Shown piece by piece: positions 4,755 to 55,340 of a DNA stretch of 60,839 bases. A model generated the notes under the pieces. It worked only from the letters and a program-made list of their open reading frames with translations, was not told the origin of the DNA and did not search any database. Both the position numbers and the translations under genes were made by a program. Within the stretch, counting starts at the first letter, position 1; each line of letters starts with the position of its first letter. This stretch comes from a virus (lineage: Duplodnaviria > Caudoviricetes), in the IMG/VR virus record IMGVR_UViG_3300032233_001802, positions 1 to 60,839 of that record, one strand, 5' to 3'.

Positions 4755-5423
4755 ATGTTTAACCATGTTCCCCATAACTTCCCGCAGCTCATACAAGAGA
4801 ATGTCGACGGGGTTCGGCGTTACGTCACTCCCACTGGCGAGAAGTATGCGTCGGTGACTACTGTTCTTGCTGACTATGGCAAGGAAGGGATCATGGAATG
4901 GCGCAAGAGAGTTGGTGAAGAAAAAGCCAACAAGATCTCTCGTGCAGCCACCACTCGCGGAACATCAGTGCACTCCGTGATTGAGAAGTATCTCAAGAAT
5001 GAAGATGTCTCTGATATTGAGATGATGCCGAATGTCAAGTCTTTGTTCGTTCGCATGAAAGAAGAACTCAAGAAGATCGATAACATTCATTGCCTCGAGG
5101 ATCGGCTGTATTCACATACGCTAAAACTTGCTGGCACTGTTGACTGTATTGCTGAGCATAATGGAGTACTCTCTGTTATCGACTTTAAGACTTCTGTGCG
5201 TCTCAAGAAGAAAGAAAACATCGGCAATTATTTCATGCAGTGTGCTGCATATGCACAGATGTTCACTGAGATGACTTCACTGCCGATCACGCAAGTTATC
5301 GTCCTGATCGGCGTAGATACCGCTAATTTTTGCCAAACTCTTAAAATTAGTGGTGAAGAACTAAATAACTACAAGAATATGCTACAGACTTATATCGACG
5401 CATACTACGCAAAGGTTGCTTGA
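4755..5423 (+). CDS. PD-(D/E)XK exonuclease
   Basis: SVTTVL, RGTSVH, AGTVD, IDFKTS and QCAAY motifs; conserved next to phoH in T4-like phages. Confidence 0.9.
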   Translation: MFNHVPHNFPQLIQENVDGVRRYVTPTGEKYASVTTVLADYGKEGIMEWRKRVGEEKANKISRAATTRGTSVHSVIEKYLKNEDVSDIEMMPNVKSLFVRMKEELKKIDNIHCLEDRLYSHTLKLAGTVDCIAEHNGVLSVIDFKTSVRLKKKENIGNYFMQCAAYAQMFTEMTSLPITQVIVLIGVDTANFCQTLKISGEELNNYKNMLQTYIDAYYAKVA

Positions 5424-34641: not shown

Positions 34642-37600
34642 ATGCCAATACCAACAGAATACGGCTCAGTAACTGTCGACACAAGTTTAGTCCCTTATAT
34701 CAGAGAAAGAGATGTCGACTTTGTTGCAAGAAACCTAAAGCCATATAAACTTGCAACTTTGTTTTTCGACGAAGTTGCTGTAAATGGTTATTGCCAAGTT
34801 GGAAGCAAGGTTAAAGTCGACGCAAAAAAAGTCATTGTAATCAGTTCAAATAATACTGGTACGATTACCGCCAATGATATTGTTTATCAGGGAACGTCAA
34901 ATACTTCTAATACTTTCGGTGCTGTTGTTGATGCCTGGTACACTGCAAACTCAACAATTGTTCTCAAAACACTTACTGGTGATTTTGATGATGTTGCACA
35001 ACTTTATATTGAAGGCGTCTCTGGTGCTAATACTGGCATCACTTATGCTAATTGTAATGTTGGTAGTGTAACAACTTTTCAAACCTCAGACATATTTGAT
35101 ATTAACGAGGGCGTCATTGATCCAGGTGCAGGTAATGCTTTTGCCAGAGTTATTGCAACTTCTGGCGAAAATATCATGTATATTGATCATAACTACATCA
35201 ATATTAACGTAGAGGCTGTCGGTATCAACGTAATCAGTTCAATGAGTTCTGATTATAAGGTTGGTGATATTGTTTATCAGACAAGAGACGGCACTCCTGG
35301 ATTCGACGATACTAAGATTGTCTTCAAAGGATATGTTGAGTATTATAATGCAATCGGAACTCCGACAATCGCAATTGCACCAATTAATGGTAGCGTTGTG
35401 GCTAACTCAACAAGTGCAGGATCAAACGCGAATGTCCGTTTTTGGAATGCCTCAAATACCTCTGCAAAACCACTAGCCGCAAGTTCCTTCAACAAGTATC
35501 ACTTCTCTTCATACGCTGGACATAATGTTCAAAGCGCAACGGATAGCACGAAGTCGATTAAAGTTACTTCATATCGCCACTTCTCTGGCGTGTTTGCTAA
35601 CACTAATGTACCAAATAATCAGTCTGTTATTCTTAACACAACCAGTGGAACTGAGGCTGGTGTTAACGGTAATCTGATTTATTTCACGACTGGAACTGGT
35701 ATCGGTACAATTAGACGAGTTGTCGCTATTAATGGTGACATTGCTGTTCTGAACAGTTCAATTAATTTTGCGGTGACTTCAAACACGCATTATAGCGTTG
35801 GCAACTTTATTGTTGATGATCATGGCACTATTGCTGGTATTTTCCATATTCCATCTACTCAAACTGTTAAGTTTAAGACTGGCGAAAGAATCTTTACTAT
35901 AACAGATACAAATACCTATGATGATCCAAATTATGGAATGAGAGCAACTCATCGCTACTCTGCTTCTGGTGTATTGAATACCAAGCAACGTATTCAGATG
36001 ACTCCGATCATCACTCCACTACCTGAAACAGAGGCTGATTCGTTAGTATCGCCAATTAATCCCGCAGACAGAACATTTAATACAGACACATATAAGTCAC
36101 CTGTAACTGGATCATCTGCATCGAATATTCCAAGAATTCCTCTCGGCGATGGATTGTCTCAAACATTCTTTACTCCAAAGAAGGCATCAAATAACCAAGA
36201 TTATGGTATGTTCGTTTCGTCGATCGATCTATTCTTTAAGACGAAGCCAAGCGTTGCTGCTGGTAACATGCAGCTGCCAGTTACAGTAAGACTTGCCGAA
36301 GTTGTTAATGGATATCCTACTAAGAATTATCTTGCTTCTAAGACTCTTCAAGCCAAAGATGTCAAGATTTCAAATTTACCAAGCGCAAGCAATACTAGCA
36401 CTCTAACTAAATTTACATTTAATGATCCAGTTTATCTACAACCAAACCACGAATATGCGATTGTAATTGGTTCTGATTCACCAGACTATTCAGTGTATAC
36501 TGCTGTTCTGGGTGAAACTGTACTGGGTTCAGATCCACCTCGTCGTATTTCTGAACAGCCATACGCTGGTTCATTCTTCCGTTCACAGAATAGTTCGACT
36601 TGGACACCATATCAGAACGAAGATCTGATGTTTGTTATTAATAAGGCTGTATTCGTTTCTTCTGGAACTGCAACCTTTAATCTAGAAAAGGCTCCAATTG
36701 GCGTCGGATTTATCGATAAAGTATTACTTGTTTCTTCTGATCTATCATTCCCTGCTGCCAATCTTTCTTATGATATCAGCGGAATTTATGCTAACACACA
36801 CAGTTATGATAACCCAAATTCCATTGTTCCATACAAGCCACTCGAGTATGGATCGCTATTCGATAAGTCTAATAAGAACTCGACCAGTTCTTTAAACAGA
36901 AGATCTCTGCGTGCTGGTAATGCGAATAGTTTTATCGTTACAGTAAATATGAATACTGCAGACCCAGATATTTCGCCAATTTTGAATACAGAAAGATTTG
37001 CTCTACAGGCATTCTCATATGATATCAATAATGCAAATCTGGCTAATAGTTTCATCTCGTTGACTTATACTGGTTCTGGATACAATGCAACAGTAACCAG
37101 TGGTAATTCAATATTTGGTTCTTCGAATAGCACAGTCAATAACTATGCTCAATTGTTCAGAGAGAAATTCTTGGCCAACAACTGGAATGTCGGTTTCTAC
37201 AATATCACTATCACCAATAATCCAAACGATAATGGTTCTAGTGCTCAAGGGTTTGCAGTAGCAAATACTGACGGCTCGAACACAGTAAACTATATCATCC
37301 TCACAAATCCTGGTAGCGGTTATCTCGAAACACCGACAATCTCGATCACAACTGGTAATGCGACTTCAAATATTCAAGCAACTGCATTGGTTGCTGGTGA
37401 GACTGATAAGTCTGGTGGTAATATTGTATCCAAATATATTAGCCGCGAAATTATCCTTGAAGATGGATTTGACTCGAGCGATATCTCAGTGTTCATGGAC
37501 GCAATCCGCGTAACTGGAACTGATATTCAAGTTTACTATAAGGTCGTTTCGAGTGAAGATCCAGATCTTCTATCAGAAAAGAGCTGGAGAAGAATGCAAA

Positions 37601-37821
37601 AGGTCAAGGATATTTTCTCCAAGGACTACAATACAAAGATTACTCTACAGTTCAAGCCAGATTTAAATGTGAACCAAATTTCGTACACTGAGAACGGTGT
37701 TAACTACCCAATCGGTGGAACATTTAAGTCGTTCGCAATTAAGGTCTGCTTGCTAACTACTGACGGTGCTATTGTTCCTAAACTAGATAATCTAAGAATC
37801 AGTGCTCTACCTGCAGGTTAA
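34642..37821 (+). CDS. VrlC-like virion structural protein, C-terminal part
   Basis: VPYIRERDV, FKTGERIF, LSQTF, SIDLFF, GSFFRSQNSSTWTP...DLMF and FKSFAIK motifs. Confidence 0.88.
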   Translation: MPIPTEYGSVTVDTSLVPYIRERDVDFVARNLKPYKLATLFFDEVAVNGYCQVGSKVKVDAKKVIVISSNNTGTITANDIVYQGTSNTSNTFGAVVDAWYTANSTIVLKTLTGDFDDVAQLYIEGVSGANTGITYANCNVGSVTTFQTSDIFDINEGVIDPGAGNAFARVIATSGENIMYIDHNYININVEAVGINVISSMSSDYKVGDIVYQTRDGTPGFDDTKIVFKGYVEYYNAIGTPTIAIAPINGSVVANSTSAGSNANVRFWNASNTSAKPLAASSFNKYHFSSYAGHNVQSATDSTKSIKVTSYRHFSGVFANTNVPNNQSVILNTTSGTEAGVNGNLIYFTTGTGIGTIRRVVAINGDIAVLNSSINFAVTSNTHYSVGNFIVDDHGTIAGIFHIPSTQTVKFKTGERIFTITDTNTYDDPNYGMRATHRYSASGVLNTKQRIQMTPIITPLPETEADSLVSPINPADRTFNTDTYKSPVTGSSASNIPRIPLGDGLSQTFFTPKKASNNQDYGMFVSSIDLFFKTKPSVAAGNMQLPVTVRLAEVVNGYPTKNYLASKTLQAKDVKISNLPSASNTSTLTKFTFNDPVYLQPNHEYAIVIGSDSPDYSVYTAVLGETVLGSDPPRRISEQPYAGSFFRSQNSSTWTPYQNEDLMFVINKAVFVSSGTATFNLEKAPIGVGFIDKVLLVSSDLSFPAANLSYDISGIYANTHSYDNPNSIVPYKPLEYGSLFDKSNKNSTSSLNRRSLRAGNANSFIVTVNMNTADPDISPILNTERFALQAFSYDINNANLANSFISLTYTGSGYNATVTSGNSIFGSSNSTVNNYAQLFREKFLANNWNVGFYNITITNNPNDNGSSAQGFAVANTDGSNTVNYIILTNPGSGYLETPTISITTGNATSNIQATALVAGETDKSGGNIVSKYISREIILEDGFDSSDISVFMDAIRVTGTDIQVYYKVVSSEDPDLLSEKSWRRMQKVKDIFSKDYNTKITLQFKPDLNVNQISYTENGVNYPIGGTFKSFAIKVCLLTTDGAIVPKLDNLRISALPAG

Positions 37822-37823
37822 TT

Positions 37824-38045
37824 ATGCGCGCACGAGTCAAAGAAAACATGCATTATGTGAAGGACATGAATAACTTTGCTATTTTAAATACAAATAAAGC
37901 TGCAATTAAAGAGCATGAAAAAAAGATAGCAGAGTTACAAAGAATTAAGTCCACGGAAAACGAAATAAATACTTTAAAATCAGAAGTCTCGGAAATCAAA
38001 TCAATGCTTTCCCAGATTCTTAAGGCTGTAGGCGGCGAGAAATAA
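37824..38045 (+). CDS. small coiled-coil protein conserved in T4-like phages
   Basis: AILNTN...EINTLKSEVSEIKSML. Confidence 0.8.
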   Translation: MRARVKENMHYVKDMNNFAILNTNKAAIKEHEKKIAELQRIKSTENEINTLKSEVSEIKSMLSQILKAVGGEK

Positions 38046-38048
38046 AAC

Positions 38049-40172
38049 ATGGCAAATACCGTAAATGTAGGGTTAACAACAACTTCTAATACGTTTAATC
38101 AGTGGCGTATTACAGATAACCTTTTAGCAAATGATGTCAATGAAATTGCTCGCGGCAATTTTACCAAGCCTACAGGCAATGTTACCATCACTGATGGTTT
38201 TTTGACAATTTCAAAATCTTCTGGTGTAACACTTACTGTTGCTTCTGATTCTCGTCAAGCTGGTCTTGCTTCGATTCACTCCATTGAATCTGATGCCGAT
38301 GGTCACGTTTATCTGCCTTCTGGCGACATTACGATGGCTAATCGTGCTTCTGGTGCACTATATCAAGCCAATATTAATACGGTTTTCACTTCTGCAAATG
38401 TCACGATTGGTAATACTACAGTTGGCGGTACGTTCAATGTTTCTTCAAATACATTGATAACTGCTTCTAACGTAGTTATTTCGAATACTCAGGTTGGCGG
38501 CACACTAAACGTTGCTTCGAATACGACAATTACTGCACCTAATGTGACTATTTCAAATACTGGTGCTGGCGGAACTTTCAACGTTGCTTCGAATACTACG
38601 ATCTCTGCGCAAAAAGTTTCAATTTCAAATACGACTGCTGCTGCAAGATTTAATGTATCGCCTAACACATTCTTCTTTGGCGGCTCCGTCAACGTTGCTA
38701 ACACTTCTGGTAGTGCAACGTTTGAAGTTACTCCAAACACTTATCTCTATGCAAGTGCTAATGTCAGCCAAAACGTAAACGTCGGCGCGAAACTAGAAGT
38801 GACAGGCAATGCCTATGTCTACTCTAATGTGATTGTTTCGTGGAACACCTCGACAGGAAACGCTCTAGTTACACAAAATACTTCGACAGGTAATCTATCA
38901 GTTACTCAGAATACTTCATCAGGAAACTTGACAGTATCTCAAAATACAAGTTCTGGTAATTTGTCAGTTACGCAAAATACTGCGACAGGCAATCTATCTG
39001 CTACACAAAATATTTCTTCTGGTAATGTGACTGTAAGCAGAAATACTTCTACTGGTAATCTTTCTGTTACGCAAAATACTTCGACAGGTAATCTATCAGT
39101 TACTCAGAATACGACAACAGGTAATCTGGTTGTTACGACGCTGGCTAATATTGCTACTGCAAATATCACAACTCTTGAACCTATCGCGACACTGAATGTC
39201 GGAAATGCATCGTTTACTGGTACATTAAATGCTGTCACTGCAAATATTAGTTCAACTCTTTGGGTTCAGACTCTAACTGTCAATGATCCAATTGCTGCGC
39301 CAGCGCAGACTTCTTCTTCTCTTTATAGAGTTCGCGGTGGGCTATCTACTCGCGGCGATGGATCTTTCAATGTTAATCTTGGTTCTACAGCTAATGGTGA
39401 AGCGATCCTCAACTTTGATACGACAAATGGAAACGTGTGGCGTGTTACCGAAAATAGTTCAGCTGGAATCTACAAAACTCTATTAACCACTTCTAACGTA
39501 GTAGACTCTATCTCCTCAACAAGTACAGTTAATGCAGCTGCACCAAATTCAGTTAAGACTGTATATGATGCATTAACAACAACTGTCGCGACATTAAATA
39601 CAACTTTTGGCACTGTTAATACAAATTACCAGGCTGCTTATGCTCAGGCTAATACAGCTCGCAGTGACGCCAATACCACGTTTGCAACTGTTAACACCAC
39701 ATTTGGAACAACCAATACTACGTTCGCAAGTCATAATACCACATTTGCAACACTGAATACAACATTCGGTACAGTAAATACTTCGCTATCAACAATGAAT
39801 GCAACGTTTAGTGGAAACGTAACTGGTACTCTAAAGGGTTATAAAGATTATCTAACAACGACAACTTCGACTGGTGCAACGACTGTTGATCTTTCGACTT
39901 CAAACTGGTTCAAGTATACATTGTCTGGACCTTCGACATATACATTCGCTAATGCACCAGCATCTGGTAATGCATTTACTGTTACTCTATTGCTTGTTCA
40001 AGGAAGTGGCGGTAATAAAACTGTTTCTTGGGGCAATACGATTTATTGGGCTGGTGGACAAGTTCCTCCTGCTACAACAACTGCTGCGGGTAATACAGAC
40101 CTATGGACGTTTACAACACTTGATGGTGGATCAACATTCTACGGAACATTGGCAATCAAAGACGCAAGATAG
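38049..40172 (+). CDS. tail fibre-like protein (11-aa NTSTGNLSVTQ repeats, heptads, C-terminal adaptor domain)
   Basis: N-terminal TFNQWR anchor motif; repeats visible in the translation. Confidence 0.8.
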   Translation: MANTVNVGLTTTSNTFNQWRITDNLLANDVNEIARGNFTKPTGNVTITDGFLTISKSSGVTLTVASDSRQAGLASIHSIESDADGHVYLPSGDITMANRASGALYQANINTVFTSANVTIGNTTVGGTFNVSSNTLITASNVVISNTQVGGTLNVASNTTITAPNVTISNTGAGGTFNVASNTTISAQKVSISNTTAAARFNVSPNTFFFGGSVNVANTSGSATFEVTPNTYLYASANVSQNVNVGAKLEVTGNAYVYSNVIVSWNTSTGNALVTQNTSTGNLSVTQNTSSGNLTVSQNTSSGNLSVTQNTATGNLSATQNISSGNVTVSRNTSTGNLSVTQNTSTGNLSVTQNTTTGNLVVTTLANIATANITTLEPIATLNVGNASFTGTLNAVTANISSTLWVQTLTVNDPIAAPAQTSSSLYRVRGGLSTRGDGSFNVNLGSTANGEAILNFDTTNGNVWRVTENSSAGIYKTLLTTSNVVDSISSTSTVNAAAPNSVKTVYDALTTTVATLNTTFGTVNTNYQAAYAQANTARSDANTTFATVNTTFGTTNTTFASHNTTFATLNTTFGTVNTSLSTMNATFSGNVTGTLKGYKDYLTTTTSTGATTVDLSTSNWFKYTLSGPSTYTFANAPASGNAFTVTLLLVQGSGGNKTVSWGNTIYWAGGQVPPATTTAAGNTDLWTFTTLDGGSTFYGTLAIKDAR

Positions 40173-40178
40173 TAGACT

Positions 40179-41681
40179 ATGCCAAGAAATAATGAATTAG
40201 AAAAAACTTGGTTGCCTGGACCTTCGCGTGGAACACAGACGTTCAATGCTCCATCGAATCTAACCATTCCATATGGTCGTCACAAAGCAACTATCTCTGG
40301 AAGTGGTGGTCCTGGAAATTCTCCGACTGCTCAATATGTTGTTAATTACAATACGAACTATAATGTAGCATATCCGATTGCAAATCAGCCAGCGGCTGCA
40401 TATACTATTCTTTATAGTACAAATTACAACACAGTATATCCTGTCGCAACTCAACCAGAAGCATCTCGTCCTGCCACAGCATGGATTACCAATTATAATA
40501 CCAACTATAATGTAGCATATCCAGTCGGCACGCAGCCAATTGCTTCACAGCCAGCGACTGCATATTCAACAAATTACAACGTTGCTTATCCTATTGCCAC
40601 ACAACCAGAAGGCAATAGACCAGCAACTGCGTACAGTATTTTGTATAATACGAATTACAATGTTGCTTATCCTATTGACACACGACCAGAAGCATCTAGA
40701 CCAGCGAATGCATGGAATACAAATTATAACACTGTAAACTCTTACGGAAATACTAATTACAACGTAGTATATCCTACAGGAAATCAGCCATTATTAGGTG
40801 TTCCTTGGTATATGTTAATATATTTGAATGATGTATTGACAGTTTTTGGAAATTCTAATTCTGTTTTAATATATTCTCCAGGAGGAGGAGTATTCAGCCC
40901 AACATATTTCCCATATGAGGGTATGGCACCAGACGGTCTAAGCGGTCCTTCTCCATGGAATAGTGCTAATTTTGGAACAGTTGATGGTAGTAGTGGTTAT
41001 ATTGCACTATCATATTATACTGGGTTAGCAGAATATACTACTAACTACAACGTCGCATATCCAGTTGGTAATACAAACTATAATGTTGCGTATCCTGTCG
41101 GAAATCAACCAGCAACTGCGTACAATATTCTTTACAATACAAATTATAACGTTGCATATCCAGTTGGAACTCGACCAGAAGCATCGCGACCAATAACTGC
41201 GTATTCGATCAACTATAATACCAATTATAATGTTGCATATCCAGTCGCAAATCAACCTGCAACGGCTTGGGTGACGAACTACAATACAAACTATAATGTT
41301 GCGTACCCAACTGCTAATCAGCCATTGGCAACTCAACCAGCGACTGCGTATACTATTCTGTACAATACGAATTACAACGTCGCATATCCGATCGCAAATC
41401 AGCCAGAGGCATCGCGTCCAGTAACTGCGTACTCCACGAACTACAACGTCGCCTACCCAATCGCAACTCAGCCAGAGGGTAATCGTCCAATAACCTCATA
41501 TGTTCCAGGAGATGCTGGGGCTGCGACAACGGTTCTCGGTGTGTACTTCCCAGGTGGTGCAATCGGAAGCCCAGCTCCATACGTTTCTGACACTGTCGTA
41601 CAATATTGGGACTATCCAGACAATTCGAATTATCCAGTCGCTGTTCCTCCAGGTGGACAGATCGTAGTCAAAATCGAATAA
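40179..41681 (+). CDS. NYNVAYP-repeat protein A (6+6 complementary repeat units around a unique centre); putative adhesin
   Basis: Repeats seen directly; termini paralogous to 41726..43390. Confidence 0.85.
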   Translation: MPRNNELEKTWLPGPSRGTQTFNAPSNLTIPYGRHKATISGSGGPGNSPTAQYVVNYNTNYNVAYPIANQPAAAYTILYSTNYNTVYPVATQPEASRPATAWITNYNTNYNVAYPVGTQPIASQPATAYSTNYNVAYPIATQPEGNRPATAYSILYNTNYNVAYPIDTRPEASRPANAWNTNYNTVNSYGNTNYNVVYPTGNQPLLGVPWYMLIYLNDVLTVFGNSNSVLIYSPGGGVFSPTYFPYEGMAPDGLSGPSPWNSANFGTVDGSSGYIALSYYTGLAEYTTNYNVAYPVGNTNYNVAYPVGNQPATAYNILYNTNYNVAYPVGTRPEASRPITAYSINYNTNYNVAYPVANQPATAWVTNYNTNYNVAYPTANQPLATQPATAYTILYNTNYNVAYPIANQPEASRPVTAYSTNYNVAYPIATQPEGNRPITSYVPGDAGAATTVLGVYFPGGAIGSPAPYVSDTVVQYWDYPDNSNYPVAVPPGGQIVVKIE

Positions 41682-41725
41682 TAAGGATAAACTAAATAGT
41701 ATGGTTATCCTTATAGTGGACTAAA

Positions 41726-43390
41726 ATGTCAAAGAGTTCCGATTTAAATAAAAGCTGGATCGGCGCAGGTGCAAGAGGGACGCAAACTTTTAATGCGCCT
41801 AGCAACCTGTCGATTGCCTATGGGCGCTATAAAGGAACAGTTTCTGGTCGCGGTGGTTCGGGAAATGTTCCCACAGCAGCCTCATATGTGATCAATTATA
41901 ACACGAATTATAACGTCGCCTATCCTATTGCGACTCAACCGATCGCAACTCAGCCTGCAACAACTTGGTCGACCAACTATAACGTCGCATACCCAATTGC
42001 AACACAGCCTCTTGCGACTCAGCCAGCAGTAACTTGGTCGACGAATTATAACGTCGCCTATCCTATTGCGACTCAACCAGCCACTGCATACAGTATTTTG
42101 TACAATACAAATTACAATGTTGCTTATCCAGTTGCGACTCGACCCGAAGCATCGCGTCCAGTAACTGCTTATACTATTCTTTATAACACCAATTATAATG
42201 TTGCTTATCCAATCGCAACTCAGCCAGCCACTGCGTATACAATCACATACAATACCAATTATAACGTTGCATATCCGATTGCTAATCAGCCAGCGACTGC
42301 ATACAGTATTACATACAATACCAATTATAACGTTGCATATCCGATTGCTAATCAGCCAGCGACTGCATACAGTATTACATACAACACAAACTACAACGTG
42401 GCGTATCCAGTCGGGAATCAGCCAGCAACTGGAACTAATCCGCAGAATTGGTCTGGATCTTATTTTTATGTCTATGATGCATATCCAGCGTTTACCAGCT
42501 ACTCAAGTGGTCCTGGTTGTCCAGGTTATAGTCCATACAGCACATATTATTTTGATTATTCATTCGGTTATCCAGTGGGAGTATGGACGGGTGGGTATTT
42601 TAGCTGTAGTGGAGGAACTCCAAACTACACTACAAATTATAACGTCGTCTATCCTGTTGCAAATCAACCAGAATCTGGTCGCCCAGTAAATGCATACTCA
42701 ACAAATTACAACGTCGCCTATCCTATTGCAACTCAACCAGAATCTGGTCGCCCAGTAAATGCATACTCAACAAATTACAACGTTGCTTATCCAGTTGCAA
42801 CTCGACCAGAATCTGGTCGCCCAGTAACTGCATACTCAACAAACTATAATGTAGTGTATCCAGTTGCAACTCAGCCTGAAGCATCTAGACCAGCAACTGC
42901 CTATACTATTCTTTATAACACAAACTATAATGTTGCCTACCCGATTGCTACACAGCCTGAAGCATCTAGACCAATTACTGCATATTCAACCAATTATAAC
43001 GTTGCATACCCGATTGCGACTCAGCCAGCCAATGCTTGGGTGAGCAATTATAACACAAACTATAACGTAGCGTATCCGATTGCGACTCAGCCAGCGAATG
43101 CTTGGACGACCAATTATAATACCAATTATAATGTGGCGTATCCGATTGCAACTCAGCCTGAAGCCAATCGCCCAGTTACTTCTTATACTCCAGGAAATAC
43201 TGGAACCGCAACGACTGTTCTTGGTGTCTACTTCCCAGGAGGACCGATTGATCTTTCTGGATTCGCTGGTCCTGCAGGAACTGCACCATATGTAAGCGAT
43301 ACAGTAGTTGCATACTACTCATTCCCAGACAATAGCACTTATCCAGTGGCTGTGCCTTCGGGTGGACAAATTGTGGTTAAAATTGAATAA
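41726..43390 (+). CDS. NYNVAYP-repeat protein B (8+8 complementary repeat units around a unique centre); putative adhesin
   Basis: Repeats seen directly; shares GTQTFNAPSNL and GGQIVVKIE termini with protein A; late-like CTAAATA at 41692. Confidence 0.85.
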   Translation: MSKSSDLNKSWIGAGARGTQTFNAPSNLSIAYGRYKGTVSGRGGSGNVPTAASYVINYNTNYNVAYPIATQPIATQPATTWSTNYNVAYPIATQPLATQPAVTWSTNYNVAYPIATQPATAYSILYNTNYNVAYPVATRPEASRPVTAYTILYNTNYNVAYPIATQPATAYTITYNTNYNVAYPIANQPATAYSITYNTNYNVAYPIANQPATAYSITYNTNYNVAYPVGNQPATGTNPQNWSGSYFYVYDAYPAFTSYSSGPGCPGYSPYSTYYFDYSFGYPVGVWTGGYFSCSGGTPNYTTNYNVVYPVANQPESGRPVNAYSTNYNVAYPIATQPESGRPVNAYSTNYNVAYPVATRPESGRPVTAYSTNYNVVYPVATQPEASRPATAYTILYNTNYNVAYPIATQPEASRPITAYSTNYNVAYPIATQPANAWVSNYNTNYNVAYPIATQPANAWTTNYNTNYNVAYPIATQPEANRPVTSYTPGNTGTATTVLGVYFPGGPIDLSGFAGPAGTAPYVSDTVVAYYSFPDNSTYPVAVPSGGQIVVKIE

Positions 43391-43396
43391 CATGAT

Positions 43397-43425
43397 TTGA
43401 CTTTTTTCGATAAATAATTTATAAT
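43397..43425 (+). promoter_or_regulatory. sigma70-type promoter in front of the modification genes
   Basis: TTGACT-17 bp-TATAAT. Confidence 0.7.
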
Positions 43426-43452
43426 TGAAGTTGACAATTGAAGGAATTTTTT

Positions 43453-44052
43453 ATGCCATATCCTGTACAGCGTTATATCCGCCAATTAAATCGTTTCTGT
43501 GTTGCCACCAAAGCCTTTTCTGACGAAGAAGTAGAAAAGATTCTTGATCTAGAAGATCTGCAAAAGTTTCGAAAAGGTTCCGTCGGGACTGGTGTAGTGG
43601 GGCAAGTCAATAAAAAGACCCGCGACAGTGACGTCATGTGGGTCATGCATGATCAAAACTCAGACTGGCTCTTCAGTAAATTTTCTCAGTTAACATCGAT
43701 GGTCAATTACGACCATTTCATGTATGACATTGATGGATTTGAGAGTTTTCAGTACACTGTTTATAAGTCCAAGGACAAGCAGCATTATGATTGGCATGTC
43801 GATGCTGGCAATCTTTCTACTCCATATGAGAGAAAAATCAGTGCAACAATTGTTTTAACTCCACCAGAAAAATATGAGGGTGGAGAATTTGAAATTGTAA
43901 TGGATGGACAAGTTGCATCACCGCAACTATTGAAACCAGAAGCTGGTGATGTAATCTTCTTTGATTCGCGTATGCCTCATCGTGTGCGCCCAGTAACCTC
44001 TGGTGTTCGTAAGTCATTAGTCTGTTGGGTTATGGGAAAGAATGTATGGTAA
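43453..44052 (+). CDS. 2OG-Fe(II) oxygenase, prolyl-hydroxylase-like
   Basis: YDWHVD, RKIS, YEGGEF and HRVRPVTSGVRKSLVCW motifs; AAGGA RBS favours ATG 43453. Confidence 0.92.
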   Translation: MPYPVQRYIRQLNRFCVATKAFSDEEVEKILDLEDLQKFRKGSVGTGVVGQVNKKTRDSDVMWVMHDQNSDWLFSKFSQLTSMVNYDHFMYDIDGFESFQYTVYKSKDKQHYDWHVDAGNLSTPYERKISATIVLTPPEKYEGGEFEIVMDGQVASPQLLKPEAGDVIFFDSRMPHRVRPVTSGVRKSLVCWVMGKNVW

Positions 44053-44780
44053 ACTTGAGAAAACTCAAGTTCTGGGAAAAGCCAATTATTGAATTTTATT
44101 GTCATCCAGACCTTGAAGATGTAATACCTGAGCCAAGACCAGCAGTAAAATATCTGCCAGAATGGTTCAAAGATCTTTCGCCAACTCATGGTGATGAGCG
44201 AGATGCGTTTGGGAATAAGAATATGACTGCAAAGAGATGCCTCCCTTTGCTGGACGGAATGTCTTTGGGTTTTGTTATTCCACTTGCGGGTGATTTGCAT
44301 ATTCGATCGAATCATAACAATAGTCAGATCGAAATTACGAATCCCCCTGCATTAAAGGTGTGCGAGTTTCACAATTCTGATCAAGTCGGTGGTCCTAATG
44401 CAATCAAACAGAAACATGGAAATCCACTAAAATTCCTCAACTGGTGGGTTATTAAAACTGCTCCAGGCTGGTCGACATTGTTTATTCCTCCGATGAATAA
44501 TTTTGAACAGCCGTTTACCTGTTTAGCAGCAATGGTCGATACAGACAAGTATCCAAAAGAAGTTAATTTCCCTGCAACGTTGAATATCACTGATGCTGAT
44601 ATACATATTCCTGCTGGGACTCCATTAATGACGGTGATACCAATTAAACGCGATTCTTTTGATAAGAAGGCGAACGTTCGTAAGATGACTCGTCAAGAAA
44701 TGAAAGAGATTGATAAGATTTCACGCAGACAAAACACAAGAACGCATCATTACACCTATGAATTGAGAGTGAAGAAATGA
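44046..44780 (+). CDS. conserved phage protein often found beside 2OG oxygenases
   Basis: PEWFK...KRCLPLLDGMSLGFVIP...KTAPGWSTLF...VDTD...GTPL...IP. Confidence 0.75.
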   Translation: MVNLRKLKFWEKPIIEFYCHPDLEDVIPEPRPAVKYLPEWFKDLSPTHGDERDAFGNKNMTAKRCLPLLDGMSLGFVIPLAGDLHIRSNHNNSQIEITNPPALKVCEFHNSDQVGGPNAIKQKHGNPLKFLNWWVIKTAPGWSTLFIPPMNNFEQPFTCLAAMVDTDKYPKEVNFPATLNITDADIHIPAGTPLMTVIPIKRDSFDKKANVRKMTRQEMKEIDKISRRQNTRTHHYTYELRVKK

Positions 44781-45532
44781 GCATTTTTAATCTATTCAAT
44801 AATGATAAGCCAGATCTAGAGTTCGTCGATGATAGTGGTAATTTGATTTATCCTCATTATCCGCCAGTACTTGCCAAAGATATAAAACCATTAAAAGAAT
44901 ATCAAGAGAAAAAATTTAATGGTGAATGGACATTTCCGCAATGTCCTGGAATGTTCGACTATTCTAGAATGGGATATATCATTCCTGCATGGAGCAATTT
45001 CCATATAAAGGCTAATAAAGCGGGTCATGTTGCGTTTGTTGGAACTCGCGGAGATCAGCATGATAGACGACCAACTCCTATGAAACAACCAATGCCGATG
45101 GACACCAAAATTGTCGATGGTATGTATCAATTAGAAGATGGAATTTCTCCGTATATTTGGAATTTTCCTGGAGCATGGAAAGTTCATGGTAGAGGAAATG
45201 TGTCAGCATTATTACTTCCACCAGTCTATCACAATCAAAGTTTTCTAAATGACCTTCACATGTATCCAGGTGCAGTAGATTATAAAGGATTCACAACACT
45301 CAATTTTATTGTCACTCCGAAAAGAGCATGCGAAATAGAAATTAAAGCTGGTGATCCAGTTCTTCATGTCATTCCATTTGTAACAAACAAAACAATTACC
45401 GCAAGTTATGGTCCAGCAACGACAGATCAAAAAGATTATGATAAAATTCTTAAATGGTTCCATGAGTCTAATTTCTATCGTCGATATTATATGATTCGTA
45501 AAAAGTATAAGATATTCAAGAAAGTCGATTAA
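44777..45532 (+). CDS. paralog of the preceding conserved protein
   Basis: CPGMFDYSRMGYIIPAW...PGAVD...AGDPVLHVIPF; ATGA overlap. Confidence 0.75.
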   Translation: MSIFNLFNNDKPDLEFVDDSGNLIYPHYPPVLAKDIKPLKEYQEKKFNGEWTFPQCPGMFDYSRMGYIIPAWSNFHIKANKAGHVAFVGTRGDQHDRRPTPMKQPMPMDTKIVDGMYQLEDGISPYIWNFPGAWKVHGRGNVSALLLPPVYHNQSFLNDLHMYPGAVDYKGFTTLNFIVTPKRACEIEIKAGDPVLHVIPFVTNKTITASYGPATTDQKDYDKILKWFHESNFYRRYYMIRKKYKIFKKVD

Positions 45533-46497
45533 TGGCAAAGATATTCGTTAATATATGTTCATATCGTGATAAATTACTTGCTCCCACGATTTGTAGTCTA
45601 CTCGAAACAGAGTCTGGAAGGAATCAAATCACCTATGGAATCTTCGAGCAGACTAAACTCGAAGATTCATTGCAGGTAAAGTATCCAGAGATAGTTAAAA
45701 ATCCAAAAGTCAGATATAAGAGAATTGATCCAGAGTTCTCTGATGGCGTAGTTTGGGCGCGCTGCATCAATTCAATGCAGATCTATGACGAAGAATTCCA
45801 ATACCAGATCGATTCTCACATGCTCTTTGATAAAGACTGGGATCACCAGCTGATCTTAGACTATAACCATACTTCGAAACTAGCGAACACCAAGAAAGTC
45901 CTCCTCACTTCTGGAACTAAGAATTTCGATCTAGATGGTGAACGAATTACCAAGCATACTCTGACAGACGATATCACTGTCAAACTTGGGTATTTCCAGT
46001 TCGATAAAAACCTTCGACTCCATGCTCATGGTCCTTGGGTTCCTGCGACGGAAGTGGCTACTCCATCTATTCACATCTGTGCTGGAAATTTCTTTGCTCC
46101 TGTCAGCTGGATTAAAGACGTCGGATATAATACGAATATCTTCTTCGAAGGCGAGGAACAGATGTTTGTTATCACTTCGATCGTCGCTGGGTATCAGATC
46201 TTCCATCATCGCAAGATTAAGGTCTATCACTATCTGAAATCCAGCAGTCACGAAAGCAAACAGACGATCAATCCAGTCGCCAACCCCGAAAGATTGAAAA
46301 AGAACATAGAAAGGTCCGAGAAGGAACTTGTCAATTACATCTATTCATTGGACGAGGCTCAGCTGGAAAGGTATAGGAAGATCACAGGGGTCGATTATAT
46401 AAATAGAAAATTGGAGAACCGAGCTATTTCTAGAGGTATCTCCATAAACCCAGGAGTCACTAACGACTGGGAAATTCCAGATAGAGGTGATGCATGA
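45532..46497 (+). CDS. GT60-like (Gnt1/Skp1 hydroxyproline GlcNAc-transferase-type) glycosyltransferase
   Basis: IFVNICSYRD, GVVWAR, QIDSHMLFDKDWD and FFEGEE motifs. Confidence 0.85.
   Translation: MAKIFVNICSYRDKLLAPTICSLLETESGRNQITYGIFEQTKLEDSLQVKYPEIVKNPKVRYKRIDPEFSDGVVWARCINSMQIYDEEFQYQIDSHMLFDKDWDHQLILDYNHTSKLANTKKVLLTSGTKNFDLDGERITKHTLTDDITVKLGYFQFDKNLRLHAHGPWVPATEVATPSIHICAGNFFAPVSWIKDVGYNTNIFFEGEEQMFVITSIVAGYQIFHHRKIKVYHYLKSSSHESKQTINPVANPERLKKNIERSEKELVNYIYSLDEAQLERYRKITGVDYINRKLENRAISRGISINPGVTNDWEIPDRGDA
46398..46405 (+). promoter_or_regulatory. T4-type late promoter
   Basis: Exact TATAAATA about 90 nt upstream of ORF 46494. Confidence 0.6.
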
Positions 46498-47018
46498 GCG
46501 TAGAAAATTTGTCCCCTAGAATTTATATAAAAACCTCATCTGGTGGTGGTTGGTGCCCTCAGGGTTATTGTAACATTAATGTTCAAAATCAGTTTGCTAC
46601 AACTTCGAAATATCTACTTCTTAGAGGAACTATCGGAGTCCAATATAATGGCGAAGAAAGAACGCTCATTGATAGTCCATATGTAAACTCTGGTTGGGCA
46701 GAATATGTTGATGCCTGGAGATATGATACTTCTGTAGAAGTCACTAGTGGCGATCCTACTGCATTATTTGTACAAGTCAGTTTAAAAAGTCAAGATACAA
46801 CTGAGAATGTCCCATTTAATGTTCAGGTGTATAACTTGTCTAATGAAACAATAGTAAAGACCTCAAAAAGTCCATCCTGGATTATGGTTAAGGGTGAATC
46901 ATTTACTCTAGATGGAGTAGAAAAGGGTGATAGCGGGATCATTCAAATTTTACAAGAAAGAGATATTATCATTTCTTCTACGGGTTCCTGCAAGGTTCTC
47001 TATATCGAAAAAGCATAA
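46494..47018 (+). CDS. hypothetical beta-rich protein
   Basis: GAGGTG RBS; ATGA overlap. Confidence 0.7.
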   Translation: MSVENLSPRIYIKTSSGGGWCPQGYCNINVQNQFATTSKYLLLRGTIGVQYNGEERTLIDSPYVNSGWAEYVDAWRYDTSVEVTSGDPTALFVQVSLKSQDTTENVPFNVQVYNLSNETIVKTSKSPSWIMVKGESFTLDGVEKGDSGIIQILQERDIIISSTGSCKVLYIEKA

Positions 47019-47062
47019 TCCCAAGTTTAATAAATACAATAATAAGAACAGGGAACTCCTAA

Positions 47063-47398
47063 ATGGCGCAATTTGTAGAATTAGACATTGATCAGGGAAC
47101 AGATTTCAGTTTCAATCTAGATCTAACCGAAGACGATGGTAGTGCTATCAACGTCACAAATTTCACCTTTTCCTCGTCGATTAGAAAGTCATACTATTCT
47201 TCCTCAGCCACGGCTAATCTGACGGTTACAATTGTTGATGCTGCGAATGGAAATGTGGTTTTATCATTAAGTTCAGCTACGACAGCTAATATCAAAGCTG
47301 GTCGTTATTTAATTGATGTTAAACAAACAGACAGTAGTAATGTAAAAACTCGCCTTATGGAAGGCACCATTACAGTTAATCCGCAGGTTACGAAATGA
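47063..47398 (+). CDS. small virion structural/adaptor protein
   Basis: IDQGTDFS...GRYLIDV...[15 protein letters not shown]; late-like AATAAATA at 47029. Confidence 0.8.
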
Positions 47399-50300
47399 CA
47401 ACAATAACCGTATCAACGAATCGTGGCTCTAAAGGTCCTCAGGGTCCATCAGGTCCTTCAGGTCCTGCAGGCGCGTCTGGTAATACAGCCGATGCGTATA
47501 ATCAGGCAAATACTGCTCGAACAACCGCGAACGGCGCATATGCTCAGGCTAATGGTGCATATGGACAAGCCAACCTTGCATATACTGCTGCTAACACTGC
47601 TCAGACAGCGGCAAATACTGCCAATACGAATGCATTGAATGCATATGGGGCTGCAAATACTGCCAATACTAATGCGCTCAATGCATACGGTCAGGCTAAT
47701 CTATCTTACACAGCTGCTAACTCTGCTCAGACCGCAGCAAATACTTCTAACACTAATGCACTAAATGCATATGGACAAGCCAACCTTGCATACACAGCTG
47801 CTAACTCTGCTCAGACCGCAGCAAATACTTCTAACACTAATGCACTAAATGCATATACTGCTGCTAATAGTGCACAGACATCTGCTAATGGAGCCTACGC
47901 TCAAGCAAACGGCGCTTATGCTCAAGCAAACGGCGCTTATGCTCAAGCAAATCTAGCAGTTCTAAAAACTGGCGACACAATGACTGGGAATTTAAACGTC
48001 CAGCATGTTATCCCTAGTTCTAACATAACTTATGATCTCGGTTCTGCGACAAGAAGATTTAAAGATCTTTGGCTAAGCAATAGCACGATCTATATCGGTG
48101 ATACTATTCTGTCTGCTAGTGGCGACGAAATGCGCGCCAATACTTTCAATGCTGCAACATCAGTTATTGTTGGCGGTGTTAATGTTCTGGCTAAGACGAA
48201 CAATGCATACACTGCAGCTAACACTGCTCAAACATCAGCGAATACAGCCAATACGAATGCACTAAATGCATATGGACAAGCTAATCTTGCATACACTGCA
48301 TCTAATAGTGCTCAAACATCAGCGAATACAGCATACGCTCAAGCAAACCTTGCATACACTGCAGCTAACACTGCTCAAACATCAGCGAATACAGCAAATA
48401 CGAATGCATTGAATGCGTATGGTTCAGCTAACTCTTCAGCCAATACAGTAAGAGTTTCGCAAAATGGGTCATCAACTCTAAGTAGTAAGCAATTAAACTT
48501 TATTAATACTTCAACGATTACTGTTACAGTGGCTTCTGCTGGTGATGGAACGAATGCGAATATTTCCTTCACAGCAGTTGGTGGTGCTGCTTATGATCAA
48601 GCAAATCTTGCATACACAGCTGCTAACTCTGCTCAGACTGCAGCCAATACAGCGAATACCAATGCATTGAATGCATATGGAAAAGCAAATAACTCGGCTA
48701 ATACTGTTTGGGTTTATGCAAATGGTTCTTCTATCCTTTCTAACGGCAATCTGAATTTTAATAATACTGCAACCATTAATGTTTCTGCATCAGCAAATGG
48801 TTCTGGTCAATCTAATGTAGAATTTTCTGTTAATGCCAATTCATTTACCTTAATCGGGCGTCCAACTTCTGCATTAACTCTTGCATCTAATGTAACTGTT
48901 TCGCAAGATATGACGGTTACTGGGAATCTCTTTGTTCAGGGTGATAGCGTAACATTTAATGTCTCAACACTCAAAGTTGAAGACAATGAAATTATTTTAA
49001 ACTCTAGTAACACTGGAATTGCTCCTGCTGTTGATGCATTAATTACTGTAGAAAGAGGAACTTCAACTGATACATATTTAAAATGGAACGAGACAACGGA
49101 TAAATGGACTTGGAGTGACGATGGATCAACAGCTTATAACTTCAGCACCTCACTGAGTGCATATGCTCAAGCAAATTCTGCTTACGGGCAAGCAAATCTA
49201 GCATACACAGCAGCTAACACTGCTCAAACTTCTTCTAATACAGTTTATGCTCAAGCAAATCTAGCATACACAGCAGCTAACACTGCTCAAACTTCTTCTA
49301 ATACAGTTTATGCTCAAGCAAATCTAGCATATACCGCCGCAAATTCTGCTCAGACTGCAGCGAATACGGCAAATACGAATGCATTGAATGCATATGGTGC
49401 TGCAAACTCTGCTGCGAATACTGTAAGAGTTTCTTCAAATGGAGGCTCGACGCTTTCTGGCAAGCAACTAAACTTTATCAACACATCAACTATTACTGTT
49501 ACAGTGGCTTCTGCTGGTGATGGAACTAATGCAAATATTTCGTTTACTGCAGTTGGCGGTGCTGCTTATGATCAGGCAAACGCTGCTTATACAGCAGCTA
49601 ACTCTGCGCAAACATCTTCTAACACAGTTTATGCGCAAGCTAATCTAGCCTATACAGCCGCCAATTCCGCACAGACTTCTGCAAATACTGCGAATACTAA
49701 TGCACTAAATGCATACGGCGATGCTAATACAGCTAACACTAATGCACTAAATGCATATGGTCAAGCAAATAATGCTTACGCTAAAGCAAACTCTGCTGCA
49801 AATAATGTTGCAATTTTTGCTAATGGTACAGTTGTTCTATCAAATGCTAATGTAAACTTTAACAATACTGCAACTATTAACGTTGCTGCAACTGCTAATG
49901 GTACTGGGCAGGTTAACGTAGCATTTTCGATAAACACTTCTTCAATTAGTGGTGCCACTGGCGCACAAGGTCCACAAGGTCCTGCTGGTACACAAGGTCC
50001 TCAAGGACCATCGGGTCCATCTGTAACAGGTGCTCAAGGACCGCAGGGACCACAAGGTCCTGCTGGTACACAAGGTCCTCAAGGACCATCGGGTCCATCT
50101 GTAACAGGTGCTCAAGGACCGCAGGGACCATCTGGTGCATTGACTCCATGGACCGTCAAAAACACGACATACACAGCTGTTAATGGCGATCGTTTAATCG
50201 CTAATACTTCTGCTGGTGCGTTCACGATTACTCTACCAGTTACTCCAGCCAGCGGTGCTTATATCGTAATCACTGATGCAAATGATTGGAGTGCTAATAA

Positions 50301-50772
50301 TCTAACAGTTGCGCGCAATGGCTCGACGATTGAAGGATATGCTCAAGATCTTGTTTTAGATCAGAAGGGTGTGACTGTTGAACTCATATATGATGGCGGA
50401 ACATGGTCCGTTACTGCAACCACTGGTTCGCAAGGTCCATCTGGTCCTGCTGATATCCCTCAAAATAGTCAAAACAATTCATATACTCTTGCAATATCAG
50501 ATAATGGTAAACACATCTATACACAAAACACTGGAGGAACTCAAACAATTACAATCCCTGCAAATAATACTGTAGATTTTAATATTGGATCTGCAATCAG
50601 TATTATTTCAAAAGGAACGGGTAATGTAATTGTATCAAAGGCTTCTGGTGTGAACTTATACCTCGCCGCAAACTCAACTAGTGCTAGCAGAAATATTGCT
50701 GCTTATGGAATGGCAACACTTATTAAGGTCGAAGCAAATACGTGGTTTATCAACGGCACTGGAGTGACCTAA
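47395..50772 (+). CDS. fibre protein with AYxQAN heptad repeats, duplicated beta modules and short collagen segments
   Basis: Repeats visible in the translation. Confidence 0.85.
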
Positions 50773-50773
50773 T

Positions 50774-51457
50774 ATGCACGGCGCGATGATGTTGAATATG
50801 GCACAGACTTTTGTACCGCCGCCATTACTAGTTTATGATTTAGACGCTGCAAATTATTCTGCATTACCAGGTGTTGGTAATACTGTTAATGGATTTACCG
50901 TAACTACATCAAATACTGCTGGCTCACTTTCTTGGAATAGTGCGAATGGCGGGGTATTCAGAAAGAGCAGTTCTTCTGGCTTAGATTACATCTATGGTGG
51001 ACCAAGCTATGTAACTGGTCAAAGTTACTCGGTCTTTATGGCTTATAAGTTGTCAGCAACTTCCTCTGGTAGATTACTCAACACTCAAAGTGAAGGTGTT
51101 AAAGACTGGATGATGGGCGCATACAATGGATATCCGAATGCATTTTATCCAAACTTTTCTGTGAATTTACCATCATCAGGTGCAGATACTGTTTGGCATT
51201 TTGCTTGGGCGACATGGAATACTAATACAACTGTTGGGCAACTCTGGGTAGCAACAAATACAGCACCATCAAATTATTCATACACAGCGACCAATGCTGG
51301 TGGTGGCGGATTTAATCAGCTAAGATTATTCAGCCGTGCATCAGGGTCAGAAGTGCAAACAGGTGATATAGGATTTGTTAAAGTTTATAATGGAATTTTG
51401 AGCATCGGAGACATACAATCTCTCCATGCGACTTATAAAACGAGATTCGGGTATTAA
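50774..51457 (+). CDS. LamG/concanavalin-A-like lectin domain protein
   Basis: YDLDAANYS, WHFAWATW and GDIGFVKVYNGILS...KTRFG motifs. Confidence 0.75.
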   Translation: MHGAMMLNMAQTFVPPPLLVYDLDAANYSALPGVGNTVNGFTVTTSNTAGSLSWNSANGGVFRKSSSSGLDYIYGGPSYVTGQSYSVFMAYKLSATSSGRLLNTQSEGVKDWMMGAYNGYPNAFYPNFSVNLPSSGADTVWHFAWATWNTNTTVGQLWVATNTAPSNYSYTATNAGGGGFNQLRLFSRASGSEVQTGDIGFVKVYNGILSIGDIQSLHATYKTRFGY

Positions 51458-51488
51458 TAAATACAATTAACAGTTTTTGAGAATAAAA

Positions 51489-54400: not shown

Positions 54401-55340
54401 TCTTGTCGGTAATGTAGTGGCAACAGCAGGTAATACTGCTAATGCGTATGCTCAAGCGAACGCTGCATATGGTCAGGCAAATGCTGCATACAGTCAAGCC
54501 AATACTGCACGCAGTGATGCGAATACAACCTTTGCGACTATTAATACGACGTTTGGTACTATCAATACCAATGCAACGAATATTAATTCTAATGGGTTGA
54601 ATGCATATGGTCAGGCAAATGCTGCATACAGTCAAGCAAATACAGCTCGTTCTGACGCGAATACAACATTTGCAACTGTTAATACAACGTTTGGTACTAT
54701 CAATACCAATGCAACGAATATTAATTCCAATGGGTTGAATGCATATGCTCAGGCTAATGCTGCTTATGGTGCTGCAAATACTGCTAACACTAATGCACTA
54801 AATGCTTATGGACAGGCTAATGCAGCCTATACCCAAGCAAATACTGCTCGTAGTGATGCGAATACTAGTCTTGCTACCCATAATACGACATTCTCTACTG
54901 TCAATACAACATTCGGCACGATTAATACAACATTTGCAACTGTTAATACAACGTTTGGTACTATCAATACTACGTTCACTGGTAATGTTACTGGAACGTT
55001 GAAGGGCACTAAAGACTTCATGATCACTAGTACCAGTACAACAACTTCCAACACCATTGATCTATCTGTATCAAACTACTTCAGACATACGCTGACTGGT
55101 AATACGACATTTACGTTTGCTAATGCTCCAGCTTCTGGTAATGGTCAAATGGTTTCTGTTCTAATTATCCAGGATGCAACTGGTGGCAGAACAGTAACAT
55201 GGGCAAATACTGTATACTGGGCTGGTGGAACTTCACCTCCTGCAACAACTACAGCAAATGCAAGAGATCTATGGACGTTCTTTACTTATGATGCAGGTTC
55301 AACCTTCTGGGGCACATTGACAATGAAGGATGTTAGATGA
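51489..55340 (+). CDS. collagen-like fibre protein with cupredoxin-like module and C-terminal adaptor domain
   Basis: Long (G-P-Q)-type tracts; AYxQAN heptads; GHPF...CTAHAGM; C-terminus paralogous to 38049..40172. Confidence 0.88.

Follow-up and report, generated by a model that had tools for sequence, protein, structure and literature searches.

Genes A (40179..41681) and B (41726..43390) lie next to each other on the plus strand of the viral record IMGVR_UViG_3300032233_001802, a stretch of 60,839 bases rated about 35% complete, which was analysed as a whole and is referred to below as the window. We think it probable that the two genes encode tandem paralogous hairpin adhesins with a stalk of tuned length and a swappable specificity centre, located in the host-recognition cluster of a T4-like aquatic myovirus. 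Both products follow a common domain plan, in which an N-terminal domain of ~60 amino acids (aa), a repeat arm, a non-repeat centre, a second repeat arm and a C-terminal domain of 60-68 aa succeed one another; the centre is replaced as a cassette among relatives as well as at this very locus, the two arms are matched in length, and the gene context is conserved. In the arrangement that we propose, the N and C domains would meet at the base, the presumed site of virion attachment, two arms rich in Pro, Asn, Tyr, Thr and Ala would extend outwards and return alongside each other to form a stalk, and the non-repeat centre would occupy its distal end and act as the specificity domain. The length of the stalk would be tuned by the addition or removal of one repeat in both arms, and the specificity would be changed by replacement of the centre through homologous recombination with co-circulating relatives, which share long near-identical flanks.

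Architecture of genes A and B

The open reading frame (ORF) of gene A encodes a protein of 500 aa (P0001) with a Cys-less centre, and that of gene B a protein of 554 aa (P0002) with a two-Cys centre. In A, the conserved N-terminal domain (aa 1-59; 40179..40355), for which AlphaFold2 gives a predicted local distance difference test score (pLDDT) of 64-87 over aa 11-60, is followed by an N arm of 145 aa with six NYNVAYP-type repeats (40356..40790; pLDDT ~30), the centre cassette (aa 205-285; 40791..41033), which forms a singleton class and is replaced in sister samples, a C arm of 155 aa with seven repeats (41034..41498), and the conserved C-terminal domain (aa 441-500; 41499..41678; pLDDT 70-93). 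In B, the corresponding parts are the conserved N-terminal domain (aa 1-60; 41726..41905; pLDDT 70-94), an N arm of 175 aa with eight repeats (41906..42430), the centre cassette (aa 236-300; 42431..42625), assigned to the two-Cys knob class by its framework and class membership, a C arm of 186 aa, also with eight repeats (42626..43183), and the conserved C-terminal domain (aa 487-554; 43184..43387; pLDDT 81-96). The arms were delimited by a repeat parse, which puts both centres at the same edges as the first-pass annotation of this DNA. The arm repeats of the two proteins are 22-27 aa long and consist of NYNVAYP followed by xxQP/xxRP motifs, and the N arm of A is composed of 17% N, 14% A, 14% Y, 12% T and 11% P.

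The first-pass annotation had described the two centres as mutually unlike and their flanks as closely related. The former is borne out, since blastp between the centres of A and B yields a best E value of 0.65, and a global alignment, when forced, reaches 28% identity; the flanks turn out to be only moderately similar, with 61% identity in the N domain, 56-58% in the arms and 68% in the C domain. The 65 residues of the B centre include 12 Y, 11 G, 10 S, 7 P, 5 T and 5 F, in agreement with its earlier description as rich in Tyr, Ser, Gly and Phe, and its exactly two Cys residues, C265 and C294, are the only ones in the whole of protein B. The label of aromatic-rich tips thus suits B (29% aromatic residues) better than A, whose centre is 17% aromatic and contains no Cys. 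The AT-rich start that had been pointed out for the A centre is also evident, the GC content being 20-27% over 40791-40880 (in steps of 30 nucleotides, nt) compared with 36% for the whole centre and ~40% for the gene; since this stretch codes for a peptide rich in Leu, Ile, Asn, Tyr and Phe, the bias may be a consequence of the codons.

Neither P0001 nor P0002 matches any Pfam or PHROGs family at E <= 0.01, and a search of the ESM Atlas returned no usable match for the family. In the AlphaFold2 model the B centre comprises three strands with pLDDT 57-77. Foldseek found no match of the B model in the PDB at E <= 0.001; its one BFVD candidate, the unnamed A0A516KZD8 (E 7.5e-5), was set aside as uninformative (TM-score 0.13-0.15, root-mean-square deviation 48.6 A).

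Family members and classes of centre

A word-indexed search yielded a set of 48 homologues, and phmmer, run exhaustively against 1.84 billion cluster representatives (E <= 0.001), yielded 58, many of which are fragments; their best-matching stretch never covers the centre of A. A scan of viral contigs identified 23 loci that carry the hairpin gene or genes, of which 13 have a tandem pair like A and B and 8 a single gene, while the remaining 2 start at or inside the hairpin genes and hence show one complete gene. Across the family the centres measure 60-150 aa and fall into several unrelated classes, and the Pro-rich repeats range from 8 to 36 aa.

Single-linkage clustering divides the 72 unique centres into ten groups: a two-Cys group (n=38, including B), a Cys-less group (n=12), a multi-Cys group (n=6), several small groups, and A as a singleton with no blastp match among the 71 other centres at E <= 1e-3. 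The two-Cys class has a recognizable framework, NP..FNW / CPxP / YxC..GN, which lies before the first repeat of the C arm, with variable loops and a Cys spacing of 15 to 29 residues. The B centre, which clusters with 37 others, fits this framework with a gap of three residues in the FNW motif.

Replacement of the centre cassettes

That the centres are exchangeable, as the first-pass annotation had proposed, is seen directly in pairs of close relatives with unrelated centres. P0025 and P0032 are 95-100% identical in their flanks and 25% identical in their centres, and the corresponding values for P0024 and P0027 are 96-100% and 30%. Likewise, the first genes of loci L011 and L019 share 100% of the N domain, 94% of the N arm and 95% of the C domain but only 12% of the centre, and the second gene of L012 and the gene of L018 have flanks of 100/86/88/100% identity around centres of 18%. 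At the DNA level the breaks are sharp: L011 and L019 run collinear, with 96.4% identity, as far as position 4795 and the last repeat of the N arm, then carry unrelated segments of 207 and 249 nt, and then resume at 93.6% over 4 kb. Similar breaks enclose 280 versus 247 nt in L012/L018 and 301 versus 310 nt in L020/L021, and in L015/L016 the replaced block takes in the arms together with the centre (~1.4-1.5 kb). Even centres of the same class lie below their flanks in identity, with 64% versus 96-98% for the second genes of L008/L009, 58% versus 89-100% for those of L015/L020, and 77% versus 92-100% in another comparison. In these alignments the centres are less conserved than the flanks.

The exchange can also be followed at the locus itself in sister samples. 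Contigs, rather than reads, of four sequencing runs of one study (X1-X4) were placed on positions 39500-44000. Those of X1, a run from which the window may derive, match throughout, whereas contigs of X2, X3 and X4 cover the flanks of gene A but leave the bin 40859-41009 at a depth of 0, a value that is informative solely because contigs join across this bin. Contigs of X3 connect 40775 to 41043 and 40776 to 41034 with other letters in between, and loose contig ends begin at 40790 (X2 and X4) or end at 41033 (X4). Translated in the frame of gene A, these loose ends read VTGSNPNNGF and ICTAFGSNPN, which is how two-Cys centres typically begin and end and differs from the centre of B, and it is for this reason that we conclude that gene A in X2-X4 carries a cassette of the two-Cys type, with edges exactly at 40790/41034. 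The centre of B, in comparison, is retained in X2-X4, with 6-10% differences against 2-5% in the flanking contigs. A coverage drop in the centres, one of the signs that the first-pass annotation had suggested looking for, was found in A; the B centre is covered and shows raised differences.

High-depth contigs of X3 contain two further joints. One connects 41177 to 41330, skipping 152 nt of the C arm of A with 5 other letters in between, and the other connects 42294 to 42616, skipping 321 nt from the N arm of B to the end of its centre. Both probably reflect repeats or other strains; they could represent alleles with fewer repeats, another B cassette or repeat artefacts, the contigs being too short for phasing.

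Matched arms and the proposed hairpin

The two arms flanking a centre are closely similar in length. Measured by motifs, the N and C arms are 139/138 aa in A and 167/169 aa in B, and in other members 176/178, 186/186, 204/204, 227/226, 245/244 and 313/311 aa. Over the family the arm length extends from ~21 to ~332 aa, a range of ~15-fold, with the N and C arms mostly within a few residues of each other. An automatic parse produced a correlation of r = 0.95 between the two arms of 70 unique full-length proteins, 42 of which agree within 10 aa and 55 within 20 aa; this parse truncates some two-Cys centres. A second automatic parse of the same 70, in which the arms measure 157/153 aa in A and 186/184 aa in B, gave r = 0.80, with 44 within 10 aa; it misses degenerate arms of P0016, P0019, P0028, P0029, P0042 and P0048, and its large misses are mostly parse failures at degenerate repeats.

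Changes in length are also paired. Close relatives differ by -22/-23 aa (the L023 protein and P0017 versus P0008), by -18/-18 aa (the L024 protein versus P0034) and by +8/+8 aa (P0024 and P0027 versus P0025, P0033 and the first gene of L009), so that in three clades one repeat has been gained or lost in both arms together. Paralogues of one genome differ in arm length, each being matched internally. The stalks of adjustable length that had been postulated for A and B find support in the family, both in the range of matched arms and in these paired one-repeat changes. Regarding the two genes of a locus, the arms of the second gene are the longer ones in all 11 tandem pairs compared, taken from the window and L009-L021, which are related and hence not independent (e.g. 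157 versus 186 aa here, 204 versus 246 aa, and ~270-300 versus 332 aa elsewhere), and this suggests that the tandem genes form a fixed pairing of a short and a long protein.

The order of the repeats points in the same direction as their number. In 25 of the 34 proteins that could be evaluated, mirror order of the repeats in the two arms scores better than direct order, and in the P0025 clade units of 23 aa stand at both ends while units of 8 aa (YNVAYPVS) stand beside the centre in both arms. AlphaFold2 with family alignments is confident solely for the N and C domains (pLDDT 70-96; 64-87 for the N domain of A), the mean pLDDT being 48.7 for B and 45.3 for A. When the N domain (aa 1-62) and the C domain (aa 478-554) of B were submitted as two chains, the interaction prediction score from aligned errors (ipSAE) was 0.33, compared with 0.00 for the best of three controls, with no less than 89% of contacts in agreement between the runs and a partner pLDDT of at least 66. 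The mark of 0.33 is reached by 58 of 80 solved complexes and by 2 of 110 mismatched pairs; among scores of up to 0.60 there are just 7 of those 80 complexes together with both of the mismatches that passed. Taken together, the equality of the arms, the mirror tendency, the confidently predicted terminal domains and the weakly supported contact between them suggest that the stalk is probably a self-paired hairpin; its base would face the virion and its tip the host.

A number of observations weigh against this reading. Both automatic parses make visible boundary errors, and the kinship among the proteins inflates r, which consequently overstates the independent evidence. In A and B themselves, the fit to a mirror order is weak. 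The arms of some members are very unequal (~119/48 aa in P0004, ~60/188 in P0005, 43/92 in P0015 and 70/38 in P0031); P0015 and P0031 are 100% identical in their aligned columns, and yet the difference between them is -27 aa for the N arm and +54 aa for the C arm, while that between P0038 and P0040 amounts to 23 aa and is restricted to the C arm. The metagenomic contigs behind these members are short, and faulty assembly of the repeats could account for the differences. Neither the arms (pLDDT ~30) nor the A centre (~40) could be usefully modelled by AlphaFold2, and the two-chain prediction for the terminal domains is a weak pass. Finally, no cultured phage with the family was found among 50,697 records (tblastn with the whole of B at E <= 1e-5 and with its C domain at E <= 1), and megablast of 36000-48000 against the same records gave nothing, searches in which the low-complexity filter could mask repeat matches.

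Phage tail fibres are mostly parallel trimers whose N terminus lies at the virion. A and B may be conceived as linear fibres in which the N domain sits on the virion, the C domain is distal or acts as a chaperone-like assembly module, and the centre forms a knee or a lateral knob whose variation would serve immune-like escape or secondary binding. The very unequal arms of P0004, P0005, P0015 and P0031 and the weakly supported contact between the N and C domains would suit such a fibre. It offers no reason, however, why the arms should be matched over a 15-fold range or why insertions and deletions should be paired in three clades; furthermore, the C domain ranks with the best-conserved parts, in contrast to a distal tip that determines specificity, and the Pfam scan of A and B detected no chaperone or peptidase family. 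We therefore regard a linear fibre as rather unlikely, and retain the hairpin as the working model for the stalk.

Genomic context

The window contains the structural module of a T4-like myovirus according to PHROG and Pfam scans. It encodes a baseplate tail-tube cap, a hub/lysozyme resembling T4 gp5, wedge subunits like T4 gp6 and gp7, a gp8 domain, and two very large phrog_358/877 proteins, one of which has a DUF4815 domain, a type of protein that we take to be VrlC. The baseplate wedge protein finds its best matches, at 34-39% identity, in pelagimyophages (infecting Pelagibacter), Methylophilales phages and Synechococcus myophages; because it is at most 39% identical to those of cultured phages, the virus is predicted to belong to an uncultured aquatic T4-like lineage. 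Genes A and B come after the gp5/gp6/gp7/gp8-like baseplate genes and the DUF4815/phrog_358 giants and before collagen-like fibre genes on the same strand.

Immediately upstream lies a gene for a fibre-like protein of 707 aa (38049..40172, + strand), recognized from its ORF and repeats, with about ten 11-aa repeats of the NTSTGNLSVTQ type, a second run of the NTTFxTxNTTFG type and a globular C-terminal part. Its sole family match is a weak one to phrog_5070, and it is probably another fibre. By tblastn this gene is found upstream of the hairpin genes in most loci (~20 of 23); those with no match are L008, L018, L022 and L024, the first three of which start at or inside the hairpin genes. Downstream, a block identified by Pfam (43438..46497, + strand) comprises a 2-oxoglutarate-Fe(II) (2OG) oxygenase (PF13640), two DUF6065 proteins and a PF11397 N-acetylglucosamine (GlcNAc) glycosyltransferase, and in this order, oxygenase, DUF6065, DUF6065, glycosyltransferase, it directly follows the 3' end of the hairpin gene or genes in all 23 loci (L008-L030).

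In pelagimyophages and cyanomyophages, the host recognition cluster has been described as a variable island after the VrlC gene that contains tail fibres, glycosyltransferases and auxiliary genes (passages of PMC7029224). The A/B locus has the layout given in those passages, with a structural region and large VrlC-type genes before it and fibres and glycosyltransferases alongside; the same passages present the cluster with no reference to this protein family, a hairpin or a cassette structure. From this context we infer that A and B are incorporated into the virion and bind a receptor.

The cluster also holds non-structural genes, namely the 2OG oxygenase and the glycosyltransferase, and the passages of PMC7029224 note such genes in host-recognition clusters, so one may ask whether A and B are instead variable proteins in or on the infected cell, serving for example in superinfection exclusion or surface modification. 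Their fibre-like repeats, their same-strand location with baseplate genes on one side and tail-fibre genes on the other, and the swapping of cassettes, which is typical of receptor-binding proteins, speak for a virion adhesin instead, and on reading the A and B sequences, with no formal test, a signal peptide or membrane segment is not evident. We hold a role in the infected cell to be distinctly improbable.

Other features of the region were also noted. The two DUF6065 genes (44025-45532) encode adjacent paralogues of 251 aa (phrog_7084/DUF6065), which are conserved at all the loci; 28 nt are shared between the end of the oxygenase gene and the first of them, and 4 nt between the first and the second. 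Further downstream (47395-55340) are two very large tail-fibre proteins of 1125 and 1287 aa with collagen triple-helix repeats, the larger of which matches dozens of PHROG tail-fibre families. On the opposite strand, a gene at 10655-13540, in a stretch with raised GC content (~45-49%) and reversed GC skew, encodes a protein of 961 aa with an endolysin-like domain (phrog_181) at aa 571-767.

Probable mechanism of cassette exchange

The exchanged unit has conserved junctions, YPxxNQP before the centre and NYxTNYN after it. The first-pass annotation had supposed that the repeated flanks serve as recombination arms, and had raised the prospect of extra tip copies elsewhere in the genome. As regards the former, the flanks shared between phages would serve well, being 93-97% identical over kilobases, whereas the repeats shared by A and B within the genome would not: their arms have six exact DNA matches of at least 20 nt in the window, the longest of 26 nt. 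As regards the latter, tblastn and blastn detected no second copy of either centre in the 60.8-kb window, and a profile search of five related viral records for silent cassettes gave matches confined to the known one or two genes. One of the records is rated 100% complete (172,991 bases) and has a single gene and no extra family matches, although the profile is blind to an isolated cassette of an unrelated class. Because the matches between A and B are few and short and no silent store was found, the exchange is best placed between co-circulating phages, and the simplest mechanism would be ordinary homologous recombination during co-infection with relatives.

Hypervariable domains of phage tail proteins can be targets of diversity-generating retroelements, for whose reverse transcriptase the ~65% of the genome beyond the window leaves room, and repeat-rich genes are prone to chimeric assembly, as the many repeat-induced joints in X3 illustrate, but either origin of the centre variation is highly improbable, given that the window, ~35% of the genome, has no match to the reverse transcriptase family PF00078 and no template copy of either centre, that the centres differ as whole unrelated sequence classes and not by point changes, and that the reading frames remain open and identical breakpoints are seen again in contigs and samples independent of each other.

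Possible modification of the stalk

The oxygenase directly 3' of B, at 43438-44052, is of the PF13640 type, and its best solved relatives are PKHD-type hydroxylases (E 8.6e-9 to 7e-6). The nearby glycosyltransferase, at 45532-46497, matches PF11397, annotated as 'Glycosyltransferase (GlcNAc)', which we take to be the family of Gnt1. In eukaryotes, according to passages of PMC6939170, the prolyl hydroxylase PhyA and then the GT60 enzyme Gnt1 act on Skp1, one of whose hydroxyprolines thereby receives GlcNAc. Pro accounts for 11-12% of the arms of A and B, in which the YP and QP/RP positions hardly vary. Because of these Pro-rich arms, the neighbouring enzymes and the collagen-like fibres downstream, the gene content suggests that virion fibres may be modified by prolyl hydroxylation and O-GlcNAc, through the oxygenase, which resembles prolyl 4-hydroxylases, and the Gnt1-like glycosyltransferase. 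If so, the A/B stalk would be a hydroxyproline glycoprotein in a bacteriophage virion, similar in kind to extensin or collagen. We consider it unlikely that all elements hold jointly, that is, that A and B represent a new class of adhesins formed by a self-paired Pro-rich hairpin, with reach set by matched repeats, knobs pooled in the population, and a stalk that may be hydroxylated and carry O-GlcNAc.

Implications and comparison with known systems

Little is understood of how the abundant T4-like phages of lakes and oceans recognize their hosts, since the fibre genes lack annotation and vary too much for comparison. The present family may serve as a readout in metagenomes, the centre marking the specificity and the arms marking the reach, and since cassettes were exchanged within the samples of one study, arms races between phage and host could be tracked over time without cultures. 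A full-text literature search for the repeat motif found no paper, and further searches, judged by titles and the starts of abstracts, found no description of the family. If the hairpin is correct, a stalk extendable by repeats in both arms with a plug-in tip is a building principle that, as far as the motif literature search and the Pfam, PHROG and PDB comparisons reach, has not been described for phage fibres, and such a stalk could be used to display binding domains.

The first-pass annotation had likened A and B to the bovine ultralong third heavy-chain complementarity-determining region (CDR-H3), which is a two-stranded stalk with a variable Cys-containing knob and in this resembles the centres of the B class. 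The likeness stops there, as the scaffold, origin and diversification are unrelated and the A centre is Cys-less. A modular design is also found in the gp38 adhesins of T2/T6-type phages, in which, according to PMC3157838, conserved structural elements flank easily interchanged specificity determinants. Both systems are thus modular adhesins with interchangeable specificity between conserved elements, but gp38 is a small protein of its own at the tip of the fibre, its Gly-rich core bearing four short variable segments, whereas A and B carry one large cassette between arms; the A and B sequences contain no glycine-rich motifs of the gp38 type, and have no Pfam or PHROG family match.

The closest analogue appears to be the needle of T4 gp37. 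In passages of PMC6957217, its collar domain D10 is made up of residues 811-881 and 1010-1026, and the elongated domain D11 (882-1009), which carries the receptor-contacting tip, is inserted between them. Its base is thus formed from N and C segments and its specificity region is distal, an out-and-back topology like that proposed here for A and B. No sequence or fold match links the two (Pfam and PHROG; Foldseek against the PDB with 0 matches at E <= 0.001), and the iron-binding His ladder of gp37 has no counterpart in A and B, which contain 1 and 0 His respectively. Compared with gp37, the hairpin of A and B would make up the whole protein, its stalk would be built of Pro-rich repeats with a ~15-fold range in length, and its tip would be a separate domain.

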